Source: Gemmatimonadota bacterium (lineage in GTDB: Bacteria; Gemmatimonadota; Gemmatimonadetes; Palauibacterales; Palauibacteraceae). From it: a DNA stretch of 64,000 nucleotides. The position numbers and the translations under genes were made by a program. The notes beneath the pieces are model-generated. The model made no database searches, was not told the DNA's origin, and worked only from the letters and a program-made list of their open reading frames with translations. Shown here piece after piece: positions 1-7,185 of the stretch; position 1 is the first letter of the stretch, and each line of letters opens with the position of its first letter. The stretch lies in the NCBI GenBank assembly GCA_963666735.1, contig OY762926.1, positions 3,424,001 through 3,488,000 of the forward strand, given 5' to 3'.

Positions 1-1545
1 CCGGTTGTAGCCGAATGTCACGCCGCGCAACTCCACATGCCCCGCCAACCGGAGACGCCCGTTGAGAGTGGCGATCGACTGCGGTGCCTCCGCCCGGCGC
101 GCCAGCCCCGGATCCACCGGCGTGTCCGTGATGTCGTCCAGGCGCTGCATGTCGGTCAGAAGCGTCTGGCGCTCGTGCGCGAACTCGACGAAGCGCCCTA
201 TCGGTTCCAGGAACATCGTTGCCACGAGGTAGAACGCGAGCAGCGCGCCCAGCGTCAACTCGCCGGACATGACCTTCGTCGCCCCGAGGCCCAGCACCGC
301 GGCACTCCCCAGTATCATGAACAGGTCGGGCGCGGCGGCCATGAGGCTGCTCAGTTCGGAGAATCGCTGGCGCACCTGCAACTCGCGCGCCTGATGGCCG
401 CTCCAGCGGGCGAACATGCGATCTTCGGCCGCCGTCATGCGAAGCGTGTCGGCCTGATTCAACATGATCGTACCGATACCCATCAGAAGACCCTGCTCGC
501 GGCGCAGGGCGGAGGCCTCGTCGGACCGGGCGCGCGCGACCGGGCGCAGGAGCAGTGCGTTCAATAGCGCCAGCGCCAACACGGCGAGCGCCAGCGGCAC
601 GTTGTACGCCAGCATGACGGCCAGGAACACGACGCTCATGGCGACGTCGACCAGCAGGCCGAGGAAGCGTTCCGACAGGCCTTGTGCAACCTTGTCGATG
701 GACAGGATGCGTGCGGTGAGGTCTCCGGCGAGCCGGTGGCTGAAGTAGTCGATCGGGAGACGCAACAGCCGCGAGACGGAGCGGTCTCCGGCAACGATGG
801 AAATGCGAATCGCCAGACGCCACAGAAACCTCTGCTTCAGCCAGGCGACGCCATACACCAGGAGCGCGGCTCCCGCCAGCGCCCCGGCCACGAGGAGTCC
901 CCACGCCTCGCCGTCGCCGACCACGCGATCGACGAACAGGCTGGCCGCCAGCGGCGCCGCCAGGGCCAGCACAGCCAGCAGCAGCCCGCAGAGGATGGCC
1001 CACGCCAACCCGTTCCAGGCCCCGCTCAGCCAGAGCGGGAGGCGGCGCAGCAGGCCGGAGGGCGCACCGCCGGCCTGGAACGCAGGACCCGGACGGAGTT
1101 TCAGCGTCACCCCCGTGAACCCCGCGTCGAACTCCCGCGGGGAGAGCTTGCGGTGGCCCGAGGCCGGATCGTTCAAGTAGAACCACTTGCGGTCGAACCC
1201 TTCCAGGACCACGAAGTGGTTGAATTCCCAGAAGAGAATCATGGGCAGCGGCATCCGCCTCAGCCGGTCCACCTGCACGCTCCAACCCGAGCCCTCGAGG
1301 CCGTAGTGCTCGGCGGCCCGCTTCAGCCCGGCGGCGGTGGATCCGTCCCGCCCGACTTCACATGTTCCGCGCAGTTCCGTCATCGGCACCCAGCGCCCGA
1401 AATGGGCCAGGACACTGCCGAGACACGCGGCGCCGCACTCCGTCGCGTGGGTCTGCAGGTAGAGGGGGGTGCGGACCCGTCGTCTTCGCTCGCCGCGGGG
1501 GGGCCGGCCGTCTCGCGATGCCCCCCGCGAGCCGCGCGGCACCAT
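1..1545 (-). CDS. NHLP-type bacteriocin export ABC transporter (C39 peptidase/permease/ATPase); 3' part runs off the window
   Basis: Not in the ORF track (no stop inside the window). Manual translation from ATG 1545 gives MVPRGSRG...RVRTPLYLQTHATECGAACLGSVLAHFG...RDGSTA...ILFWEFNHFVVLEG...YLNDPA, which contains the C39 catalytic Cys (ECGAAC), the HFVV His and the NDPA motif, followed by hydrophobic TM segments. Confidence 0.93.
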   Translation of the reverse strand, partial: MVPRGSRGASRDGRPPRGERRRRVRTPLYLQTHATECGAACLGSVLAHFGRWVPMTELRGTCEVGRDGSTAAGLKRAAEHYGLEGSGWSVQVDRLRRMPLPMILFWEFNHFVVLEGFDRKWFYLNDPASGHRKLSPREFDAGFTGVTLKLRPGPAFQAGGAPSGLLRRLPLWLSGAWNGLAWAILCGLLLAVLALAAPLAASLFVDRVVGDGEAWGLLVAGALAGAALLVYGVAWLKQRFLWRLAIRISIVAGDRSVSRLLRLPIDYFSHRLAGDLTARILSIDKVAQGLSERFLGLLVDVAMSVVFLAVMLAYNVPLALAVLALALLNALLLRPVARARSDEASALRREQGLLMGIGTIMLNQADTLRMTAAEDRMFARWSGHQARELQVRQRFSELSSLMAAAPDLFMILGSAAVLGLGATKVMSGELTLGALLAFYLVATMFLEPIGRFVEFAHERQTLLTDMQRLDDITDTPVDPGLARRAEAPQSIATLNGRLRLAGHVELRGVTFGYNR

Positions 1546-1546
1546 G

Positions 1547-1753
1547 TCAGGCGGGGTCCAGGCCGAGGAGCAGGGCGAGCAAAGGTCGTCCGAGAGCGCC
1601 GAAGAGCGCCCAGGCGCCGATGGCGGCGAGAATCAGCCCGGCGGCGACCAGGACGATGCGTTCGTGGGGGGCGGTGACGCGGAGCAGGCGGTCAAGCTGT
1701 TGGCGGCTCGCGCTCGCGGCGATCGCTCGTTCGCGAAACGGGTTGTTGAACAT
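1547..1753 (-). CDS. 68-aa truncated homologue of the NHLP secretion (HlyD-like) protein; miniprotein or internally deleted gene
   Basis: MFNNPFRERAIAASASRQQLDRLLRVTAPHERIVLVAAGLILAAIGAWALFG resembles the FR..A......QLD.LL.VT.P + TM N-terminus of NHLP-system membrane fusion proteins. SD-like AGGAAGG upstream; the stop lies 1 nt before the transporter ATG. Confidence 0.7.
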   Translation of the reverse strand: MFNNPFRERAIAASASRQQLDRLLRVTAPHERIVLVAAGLILAAIGAWALFGALGRPLLALLLGLDPA

Positions 1754-5841: not shown

Positions 5842-5847
5842 GTCGGA

Positions 5848-7185
5848 TCAGGCCGTCGGGCGCGAAGCCGAGGGGTCGGCGCCGAACGGCATGGCCGCCC
5901 TGTGGAATACCCGTTCCGGATCGAATTCCCGCTTCCAGCGGATGCCCTGCTGGAGCATCTCGCCATAGTGTTCCGCCCACTGAGACGGGTCGTAGCCGAC
6001 GCCGCCCGACAGGTAACTCTTGCCGCCGAGTCCCACGAGCCTTCTGTCGACTTCCTCCAGTTCCCTCACAAACTCGGTCGCCCGCTCATACTGGAACTCA
6101 CCCATCACGGCGAGGATCGAGTATGAGATCGCCCGCTCCCCGGGCGGACGCATTAAGAGCGGCGCCTCGATCGCATCCCTTCCCACCGGATAGAGCCCGA
6201 TCCAGCCCCAGGGCCTGCGCGGCGTCGAGTCCGGGTCCAGCAGCGGCTCGGCGAGCAGCGTCCGTATGGTCTCCCAGGGCAGCAACCAGCCCCTCCACGG
6301 GTGATAGTGCAGCCAGCTGAAGGCCCACGAGGGATACATCCCGGCGCGCCCGACGCTGGCGGTGTCCCTCGTGTAGGCGTGTTCGTCGTGCCCCAGCCCG
6401 TCGAGGAAACCTCCATCGTCGGACGCCTCGTCGTACTCGATGCCGGCGTTGAGGACGATCAGGTTCTCGTGGTGCCGGAGTTCCGCCCGCAGGTGGTCGA
6501 AGCGGTCCGCCTCCACGAGGCGCTCGAGATCTTTCCCGAACCGATCGAAATCGCGGTAGTGGAGCTCGTACTGCCGGAACCGTTCGCCTGCCGGGCGGAG
6601 CCGGATCCATGCCTCGGTGATGATGCCGAACTGTCCCTGGCCACTCCTCACGGCATCGAAGAGTCCCGTGTTCCGAGTAGGCGAGCACCGTACCCGCTCG
6701 CCGGTGCCGGTCACCACCTCGAGTTGTTCGACCTGTCCCGCCTGCGTGCCGTAGCGATGGGAGGTCGTGCCGACCCCTCCGGCGGAGAGCGTGCCGCCTA
6801 CGGTCACCTCGCCCGTGTCCACGAGCACCGGAGGCAGTCGGCGCGTGCCGTTCAGCGTATCCACGACCTTGCCCCACCGCGCTCCGCCCTGCGCGCGCAC
6901 GAGCTCCGGGCTGACGGGCCTGACCCGATCCAGGCACGTCGTGTCGAGGACCACGCCCCGATCCGTCAGACTCTGTCCGCCCTGGGAGTGTCCTCCTCCT
7001 CGAATCGCCAGCCGAATCCCGTCTCGCGAGGCGCAGCGCACGAGCCTCGCCACTTCCTCCACGCTGCGCGGCGTCGCCACGGCTTCCGGCACCCGCCGGG
7101 TCATTCTTCCGAAGTCGCAGGCGCGCGCCTCGCGGTCGTCCAGCTTGCGGGTTGCGCCCGGGAGAAGGTGGTCTTCCTTGGTCAT
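5848..7185 (-). CDS. VAO/PCMH-family FAD-linked oxidoreductase, cytokinin dehydrogenase-like
   Basis: RGGGHSQGGQS (covalent-FAD His motif), D...TVGGTLSAGG, GQGQFGIITEA, HPW and KREFDP. Confidence 0.88.
   Translation of the reverse strand: MTKEDHLLPGATRKLDDREARACDFGRMTRRVPEAVATPRSVEEVARLVRCASRDGIRLAIRGGGHSQGGQSLTDRGVVLDTTCLDRVRPVSPELVRAQGGARWGKVVDTLNGTRRLPPVLVDTGEVTVGGTLSAGGVGTTSHRYGTQAGQVEQLEVVTGTGERVRCSPTRNTGLFDAVRSGQGQFGIITEAWIRLRPAGERFRQYELHYRDFDRFGKDLERLVEADRFDHLRAELRHHENLIVLNAGIEYDEASDDGGFLDGLGHDEHAYTRDTASVGRAGMYPSWAFSWLHYHPWRGWLLPWETIRTLLAEPLLDPDSTPRRPWGWIGLYPVGRDAIEAPLLMRPPGERAISYSILAVMGEFQYERATEFVRELEEVDRRLVGLGGKSYLSGGVGYDPSQWAEHYGEMLQQGIRWKREFDPERVFHRAAMPFGADPSASRPTA

Follow-up and report, generated by a model that had tools for sequence, protein, structure and literature searches.

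Judged from its sequence, the gene cluster at the left end of the window analysed here (64,000 nucleotides of contig OY762926.1, G000:C1:3424001-3488000) is a member of the srp family of peptides that are made by ribosomes and modified after translation (RiPPs), and it represents a subtype whose core peptide is free of Trp. We propose that its product is probably prenylated by a 374-aa protein and that a cytokinin-dehydrogenase (CKX)-like flavoprotein works in the same pathway, in which case the product is likely to be a prenylated and further oxidised Leu-(thiazoline)3-Gly, i.e., a tiny lipid-tailed peptide. The host is a sponge-associated Gemmatimonadota bacterium (genome of 3.98 Mb, 94% complete) whose closest relatives are titled Ca. 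Palauibacter. The closest relatives of the cluster (GC content 0.684 vs 0.685 for the genome) are found in sponge-type metagenome-assembled genomes (MAGs) titled Ca. Palauibacter, in other Gemmatimonadota, in Acidimicrobiia and in Alphaproteobacteria. The novelty lies in the Trp-free subtype with its CKX-like oxidase and in the prenyltransferase assignment, neither of which we found in the open literature, although prior annotation is possible. Within the window the cluster consists of the following features (negative positions lie to the left of the window):

1 to 1545, continuing to -683, minus strand: NHLP-type C39 peptidase/ABC transporter, predicted leader protease and exporter, 742 aa (PF03412, PF00664; TIGR03796 best)
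1547 to 1753, minus strand: HlyD-type adaptor remnant, 68 aa (TIGR03794 weak, E 1.4e-5)
1935 to 2222, plus strand: NHLP (proteusin) precursor, 95 aa (TIGR03793, 73.4 bits, cut-off 50.9)
2205 to 2219, plus strand: core peptide Leu-Cys-Cys-Cys-Gly (LCCCG), directly after AAG
2243 to 2279: GC-rich hairpin, flanked by the precursor and prenyltransferase genes, which converge (z -2.8/-3.2 vs shuffles)
2335 to 3459, minus strand: ABBA-fold prenyltransferase-like protein, 374 aa (AlphaFold2 model, Foldseek and VIA matches, conservation)
3484 to 5841, minus strand: SrpC-like RRE/E1-YcaO cyclodehydratase (PF02624, PF21084; TIGR03882 and TIGR03604 above cut-off)
5848 to 7185, minus strand: cytokinin-dehydrogenase-like VAO/PCMH flavoprotein, 445 aa (PF01565 (FAD_binding_4) and PF09265)
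7255 to 7310: hairpin between the HisC-like aminotransferase and flavoprotein genes, right cluster boundary (z -4.1/-5.1 vs shuffles)

Domain and open-reading-frame scans confirmed the six parts that a first-pass annotation had placed here, namely the C39-ABC exporter, the adaptor remnant, the NHLP precursor, the 374-aa protein, the E1-YcaO fusion and the flavoprotein, and the PxP tail that it had ascribed to the YcaO enzyme is indeed present (C-terminal PIPVIA, along with ATP-site motifs). Its minus-strand gaps of 24 and 6 nt are right for the longest YcaO frame, but the 6-nt gap is doubtful because the YcaO start codon is uncertain: the GTG of the longest frame has no clear ribosome-binding site, and several homologues start ~20 codons later. 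Both hairpins named as bounding the operon fold better than shuffled sequences, but neither has a T-run and neither is called as a terminator; a terminator scan gave no more calls than in shuffled sequence, and a promoter scan gave 0 sites. As for the extent of the cluster, the right boundary was correctly set at the second hairpin, but the left side is cut by the window and the cluster runs to about -9300.

We assigned the cluster to the srp family because its precursor is ~51% identical to the precursors with an LCCCW core, the hallmark of srp, and the leader ends are alike. The leader is SrpE-like, with the LxxxxL motif at 79-84 and a double-glycine-type cleavage site (AAG); a purine-rich site stands upstream of the gene, and dN/dS against two relatives is 0.04 and 0.27. 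A second NHLP-like match in the genome was rejected as a precursor and is a nitrile-hydratase-type protein. The YcaO is 58-64% identical to that of LCCCW clusters. The cluster thus has the family traits (NHLP leader with LxxxxL, LCCC core motif, fused YcaO and two ABC transporter genes), and it lacks those of the canonical brominated type, since the core ends in Gly instead of Trp; a tblastn search of the 94% complete genome with a cluster halogenase query gave no match to an SrpI-type flavin halogenase.

According to the accessible parts of the published reports, the srp pathway produces sponge-derived proteusins with SrpE, SrpC and SrpI (PMC10286304, PMC10858898, bioRxiv 10.1101/2023.06.09.544420), in which SrpC turns the three Cys of LCCCW into thiazolines and SrpI brominates the Trp (PMC10286304; PMC10858898). 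The srp-like precursors are described as ranking with the most strongly transcribed biosynthetic genes in high-microbial-abundance sponges, as spread over several bacterial phyla, and as having an elusive ecological role (bioRxiv 10.1101/2023.06.09.544420). Such clusters are known from sponges, proteusin clusters are known in Palauibacterales (PMC9426513, PMC10469786), and in mesophotic sponge MAGs, proteusin clusters with an LCCC motif contain 'several genes of unknown function' (PMC11832590). The proposal of an undescribed system therefore falls, since the LCCCW type has been characterised (PMC10286304) and LCCC-motif clusters have been reported (PMC11832590); short core and absent SagB are already family traits. 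Like the srp cluster, ours combines an NHLP precursor with LxxxxL, a five-residue Leu-Cys-rich core, a fused YcaO and two ABC subunits, has no SagB and belongs to a type found in sponge symbionts of several phyla. It differs in its core (LCCCG instead of LCCCW) and in the missing Trp halogenase, and, unlike the LCCCW type, it has a CKX-like flavoprotein and no NHLP-fused cyclase-like protein. The mesophotic clusters share two transporters, YcaO, precursor, the conserved LCCC motif and the additional genes, to which, however, no function is given (PMC11832590; 'prenyl' occurs 0 times in the main text and the two supplements searched). The accessible srp literature names no prenyltransferase, and LCCCG or LSCCG cores were found in no relevant open-literature paper among those listed.

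The lack of a SagB/McbC dehydrogenase, which the first-pass annotation had regarded as a peculiarity, was borne out by a SagB query that found no such gene across the genome (a search without positive control), with general nitroreductase matches at two places, both far away. Nevertheless, this absence is not unusual for srp, because SrpC is described as making thiazolines and 0/20 of the tabulated LCCCW clusters show SagB.

The 374-aa protein, formerly left as unknown, is assignable by fold to the ABBA prenyltransferases, and it looks like a prenyl-attaching enzyme in its predicted model. No Pfam or NCBIfam match was found at E<=0.1, none of 115 homologues matched the prenyltransferase models of these databases (cyanobactin F-type, DMATS) at E<=0.01, and the 115-member alignment, used as a profile against PDB sequences, gave no match; a single laccase-type match among the homologues was dismissed as spurious. 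Among 50%-identity representatives, 537 relatives of the protein reach E<=0.001; three sources call relatives 'hypothetical protein', and the ESM feature matches of the protein point to Trp_DMAT, PTase_Orf2 and DUF5838 clusters at 0.88-0.90 only. Its AlphaFold2 model (115-row alignment, pLDDT 93.4, pTM 0.92) is a ten-strand antiparallel barrel of alpha-beta-beta-alpha repeats, for which 32/32 Foldseek matches among those listed are ABBA/DMATS prenyltransferases. When compared by VIA to 48,161 representative chains, the top 19 were all prenyltransferases, from MpnD (Z 17.5, root-mean-square deviation (rmsd) 4.6, 315 residues aligned) down to DciF (Z 10.7), with the next chain at Z 6.0. Moreover, E64 (strand 1), D75, E131, D133, R213, R218, H341, K343, K355 and Y357 are near-invariant in the 115 homologues, and this set is present in every main clade. 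From the anatomy of DMATS and PagF, these residues are candidates for the general base and the diphosphate ligands. Note that a second prenyltransferase copy in three alphaproteobacterial clusters (L010:11139-12314, L127:10200-11339, L141:14700-15832) has lost both lysines (K343E, K355 replaced), and this clade of three possibly provides an inactive partner subunit. Modelling the 374-aa protein and the precursor as a complex (score 0.04, mark 0.32) was uninformative either way.

Co-occurrence indicates that both odd genes belong to the pathway, in agreement with the earlier proposal that an azol(in)e pathway acts here on a core of five residues; the lack of co-occurrence which that proposal had named as its refutation was not what we saw. 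Starting from the 374-aa protein, a precursor lies within 3 kb in 12/12 GTDB loci. Starting from the precursor, 26 of the 401 Gemmatimonadota genomes carry one and 24 of these 26 hold the 374-aa protein (7 with Trp-free cores, 17 with LCCCW), while in one alphaproteobacterial order the precursor was found in 11/33 genomes and the 374-aa protein in 11/11 of those; the gene is thus found in 35/37 genomes with an srp-type precursor. Among 251 genomes of the order of G401, a match was seen in G401 only (7 candidates scored per genome). The flavoprotein follows a narrower pattern, since its 12 close matches (>=63%) in 457 genomes lie in 11 genomes, all at Trp-free clusters or their remnants, and the one further match (32%) lies elsewhere.

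The survey covered 50 clusters reached via the prenyltransferase gene, with ~10 kb viewed per side; its tabulation omitted short or duplicate loci (L014, L019, L023, L069, L070, L139, L142, L144) and distant ones (L072, L073, L123, L133-135). Two subtypes emerged. The 26 Trp-free clusters hold the flavoprotein in 22 cases, an AlkB fusion in 21, a polyprenyl synthase in 11, methyltransferases in 5-6, SagB in 1, a geranylgeranyl-reductase-family gene in 1 (L018), and neither cyclase-like protein nor halogenase (0 each). The 20 LCCCW clusters hold a cyclase-like protein in all 20, the AlkB fusion in 18 and a halogenase in 14, with flavoprotein and synthase both at 0. This cyclase-like protein joins an NHLP leader-like domain to a putative class II terpene cyclase domain (L061:3032-4375 and equivalents), whose language-model neighbours fall in squalene-hopene-cyclase-C/AstC-like clusters (0.92-0.93; mixed families, hence a lead only). 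Isoprenoid-type genes thus recur across the subtypes (polyprenyl synthase, AlkB-like, terpene-cyclase-like and geranylgeranyl-reductase-family). Leu stands first in 25/26 Trp-free cores, and the C-terminal end differs between them (G, A, L, T, GI, GF, GL). In a quick tree of 65 prenyltransferases, the 53 srp-type rows group together (SH-aLRT 100), and the LCCCW rows form one branch (SH-aLRT 100) inside the Trp-free rows, a nesting that hangs on the midpoint root, near which long branches meet.

A third group (n=4) lacks YcaO and carries numerous precursors that end in Trp. In these alphaproteobacterial clusters (L132:6834-12393, L138:5234-12838, L137:10409-11973, L140:8383-13083) the prenyltransferase homologue is flanked by 4-12 NHLP precursors with hypervariable, nearly always Trp-ended cores, together with an ABC pair, an RND gene and, in two of them, a terpene-cyclase-like gene; they look like a combinatorial library of C-terminally prenylated peptides. 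More distant homologues occur in L073 (7588-11878), between two radical SAM genes and two Nif11-like precursors with the core end KVCAPYGS, and in L123 (6001-7794, Pseudanabaena plasmid NZ_CP112877.1), fused to a 2-oxoglutarate-Fe(II) oxygenase in a LanM/Nif11 lanthipeptide cluster, where the annotation gives the oxygenase only.

The flavoprotein is CKX-like in sequence and fold. The best 14 PDB sequence matches are all cytokinin dehydrogenases (E 3e-38 to 2e-23), and its model (pLDDT 87.6) is closest to ZmCKO4 (Z 42.9, rmsd 2.3, 412 residues aligned), other VAO-family members matching at Z 38 and below. It shows the features of a CKX-like VAO/PCMH protein, i.e., FAD_binding_4 with the FAD-binding His of the GHS motif (H66, 56/56), a CKX-type substrate domain and the catalytic Asp (D123, 55/56). 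It does not show the Asp169-Glu288 pair of true cytokinin dehydrogenases (PMC9340367), since the Glu position aligns with R233, an Arg in 56/56 sequences. CKX (EC 1.5.99.12) oxidises the secondary amine of N6-prenyladenine to the imine via this pair (PMC9340367). Our flavoprotein shares its fold across 412 residues, the FAD-binding His and the catalytic Asp, and differs by its identity (~30%), the Arg in place of the Glu partner and its location in a RiPP cluster. Among the matches listed, 'cytokinin dehydrogenase' occurred 0 times with RiPP or YcaO terms in the literature.

In the pathway that we propose, the YcaO would bind the leader and cyclodehydrate the three Cys of LCCCG to thiazolines, as published for SrpC on LCCCW, and the C39-ABC pair would cut the leader off at AAG, as established for the family. 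The ABBA protein, from its fold and residues, would then move a prenyl chain from a prenyl diphosphate onto a heteroatom of the core. Without an aromatic residue in the core, only a terminus, a Cys thiol or a ring is left as acceptor; the amine of the N-terminal Leu appears most likely, otherwise the C-terminal carboxylate or an azoline. The Leu amine is favoured because Leu is near-invariant and the C-terminal residue variable, because some loci encode methyltransferases that could cap the acid, and also because a CKX-like enzyme needs a prenylated nitrogen. Terminal N or O prenylation has a precedent in MusF1/MusF2 (PMC11774001). The chain would probably be C15-C20 (NctPC uses C20; PMC13290415), and the donor would come from the polyprenyl synthase found in the clusters of relatives or, here, from a housekeeping synthase. 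The CKX-like flavoprotein could take a hydride from the carbon beside the prenylated nitrogen, giving an imine that may be kept, cyclised or hydrolysed; we hold this prenyl C1-N oxidation as its reaction only tentatively, at somewhat below an even chance. Finally, the AlkB-like diiron enzyme might oxidise the chain end and the RND/MMPL pump might export the lipophilic product.

Several observations weigh against this reading. The 374-aa protein is only 7-14% identical to solved prenyltransferases (rmsd 4-5 A), a common fold in a predicted model would by itself not demonstrate a function, PatF, presumably an inactive member of the fold, is among the structural matches, and the mapping of conserved residues to the diphosphate site relies on strand order and DMATS/PagF numbering. 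In G166 and G292, two genomes with LCCCW precursors, the prenyltransferase profile matched nothing; both are fragmented assemblies (80 and 160 contigs) with the precursor close to a contig end. The flavoprotein was not seen in 4/26 Trp-free clusters, namely L008 and L018 (contig ends), L020 (which has SagB) and G677 (core RCCC). The change from Glu to Arg in 56/56 sequences suggests a substrate different from cytokinin, and oxidation of an N-prenyl amine can simply strip the prenyl group, which would be futile. The distant relatives that accompany Trp-ending precursors point to C-terminal rather than N-terminal action, and MppC needs its leader (PMC12715784), a dependence which, by analogy, would block the Leu amine here. 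The surveyed genomes are kin and their events not independent, so the counts overstate the association. Note that in G677 (L126:5182-5457) the RCCC core ends in Cys beside two prenyltransferases and one methyltransferase.

Other readings of the two enzymes have to be considered. The flavoprotein could, as the first-pass annotation had implied, be a non-homologous replacement for SagB that turns thiazolines into thiazoles (-2 Da each) independently of prenylation. Indeed, in L020 a SagB gene (TIGR03605 above cut-off) adjoins the prenyltransferase with no flavoprotein in the 18 kb seen, and no tabulated cluster has both; however, this is a single case (18 of 31.9 kb of the contig viewed), and neither enzyme is present in G677 or in any of the 20 LCCCW clusters, which makes oxidation dispensable. 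Moreover, the flavoprotein and the terpene-cyclase-like protein replace each other between the subtypes (22/26 and 0/26 vs 0/20 and 20/20), a pattern suggestive of the prenyl chain, and the nearest structures of the flavoprotein are amine-oxidising CKX, leaving such a replacement rather unlikely. We also find it unlikely, if by a hair more so, that the flavoprotein oxidises the peptide, by deaminating Leu to a 2-acyl-thiazoline or by attacking the C-terminus, with the prenyl group on the C-terminal carboxylate or a ring. The first Leu of 25/26 Trp-free cores would fit, as the sole Arg-first core (G677) has no flavoprotein, the invariant Arg233 could hold a carboxylate, and the outgroup prenyltransferases accompany a C-terminal Trp, yet LCCCW cores are Leu-first too and have no flavoprotein, the variable C-terminal residue suits a C-terminus-specific oxidase poorly, and in several loci a methyltransferase might have capped the carboxylate beforehand. 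Some reaction other than prenyl C1-N, thiazoline or peptide-terminus oxidation seems slightly less probable still.

As for the prenyltransferase assignment, the barrel could serve as a scaffold, bind the leader or perform other chemistry, the product then being a plain azol(in)e pentapeptide; this would agree with the low identity, with rmsd above 4 A to all solved members, with the lack of any sequence-level match in PDB, Pfam and NCBIfam, and with srp work whose accessible text reports cyclodehydration and bromination only. Since the Glu/Arg/Lys/His/Tyr set is conserved across all clades and isoprenoid genes recur in the clusters, we consider it quite improbable. The copy at hand may also be decaying, with little or no product, while the family functions elsewhere. 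The signs of decay, which speak against an active pathway in this strain, are a deleted synthase, an internally deleted adaptor, the private flavoprotein change D299G (Asp in 54/55 relatives) and dN/dS of 0.26-0.37 for three enzymes vs 0.07-0.15 for a neighbouring control gene; elsewhere, one related flavoprotein carries an internal stop and G100 holds a second, internally deleted copy. However, all enzyme frames are intact, their dN/dS indicates purifying selection, the precursor is strongly conserved, shortened adaptors (62-183 aa) recur across many lineages and two housekeeping prenyl synthases are present in the genome, so that decay appears unlikely. The G100 copy (L115:8379-19999) occupies the same chromosomal site as the cluster here, next to the HisC-like gene, and contains a methyltransferase, the flavoprotein, a truncated YcaO, a full HlyD, the ABC pair and RND; an intact cluster lies on another contig.

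Beyond this cluster, a bolder possibility, on which we place rather less than even confidence, is that the whole srp family makes peptide-terpenoid hybrids, unrecognised so far: the ABBA family would load C15-C20 onto a five-residue thiazoline peptide, which would then follow one of two finishing routes, a leader-tagged class II terpene cyclase with a brominase (LCCCW) or a CKX-like oxidase acting on the N-prenyl bond (Trp-free, apparently the older). If so, CKX-like oxidation of an N-prenyl bond would be a new RiPP reaction. Should the prenyltransferase be a core gene, the tri-thiazoline bromo-peptide known from print would be an intermediate only, and past efforts to find the native product would have relied on the wrong masses and polarity. 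Two enzymes of the Trp-free subtype are of possibly new scope, a peptide prenyltransferase whose acceptor is non-aromatic and an oxidase of CKX type that serves a RiPP pathway.

Short azole peptides with a terminal prenyl group reportedly include aeruginosamide (AgeMTPT). Muscoride (MusF1/MusF2) is alike in being a short azole peptide with prenyl groups on its termini (PMC11774001), and some relatives of our cluster, with two prenyltransferase copies and methyltransferases, can be likened to these linear cyanobactins. The latter differ by their cyanobactin precursor and protease logic and their ThcOx oxidase, and their prenyltransferases form a different family (PagF and PatF are lowest among the structural matches of our model). 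In their accessible descriptions, the leader-dependent RiPP prenyltransferases MppC (PMC12715784) and NctPC (PMC13290415) resemble the present system, with an ABBA barrel of low similarity to cyanobactin prenyltransferases, long NHLP/Nif11 leaders and long-chain donors; NctPC is paired with an MstE-like cyclase, as LCCCW clusters seem to be (PMC13290415). They differ in targeting Trp of lanthipeptides, whereas the core here has no aromatic residue and is predicted to be YcaO-modified.

To the left of the window, the cluster continues with three further genes:

-3613 to -671: second NHLP-type ABC subunit
-6861 to -3658: AcrB-type RND gene
-9309 to -6883 (L013:6692-9118): AlkB-like/GlnE-like fusion, 808 aa, four His boxes all present

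The AlkB fusion (an AlkB-like diiron membrane oxygenase) is conserved in both subtypes and C-terminally shortened to 630-690 aa in several members; nucleotidyl transfer by its GlnE-like half was dropped, as no conserved acidic pair was found among 33 sequences. In a same-genus genome the polyprenyl synthase lies between the AlkB fusion and RND, where ~960 bp are missing in this copy, and the adaptor remnant results from an internal deletion of ~680 bp in a gene of 294-297 aa (the DNA matches both ends in L008, L016 and L017). Contigs of sequencing runs span the synthase junction (X2, X4) and the adaptor junction (X2, X4, X7), and X2 may be the source of the assembly. The sole RNA run, X1, contains 0.05 of the words and yields contigs of ~90% identical relatives, so it is silent on this strain. 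For the cluster polyprenyl synthases of relatives, FPP- and CrtE-type models are the best, below cut-off, with small residues before the first Asp-rich motif, which suggest C20.

On the right side, HisC-like aminotransferase, ApaG-like and TenA-like genes (window 7354-12183) were rejected as members, as only within the genus does this block stand beside LCCCW and Trp-free clusters; in the Actinomycetota and Alphaproteobacteria loci inspected, no such aminotransferase gene adjoins the cluster. The first gene (window 7354-8547, minus strand) encodes a HisC/PtaA-like pyridoxal-phosphate aminotransferase with a weak Tat-signal match. The same site holds an LCCCW cluster in some same-genus genomes (L054, L055) and a Trp-free one in others, which suggests cassette exchange; 11/19 same-genus genomes had no prenyltransferase match. 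Elsewhere in G000:C1, a six-frame scan showed one identical short frame, probably an insertion sequence, at no fewer than 9 places (e.g., 2981811, 3863964), and inspection of the list of open reading frames by eye suggested class A beta-lactamase-like motifs in a frame at window 13069-14931 (minus strand).

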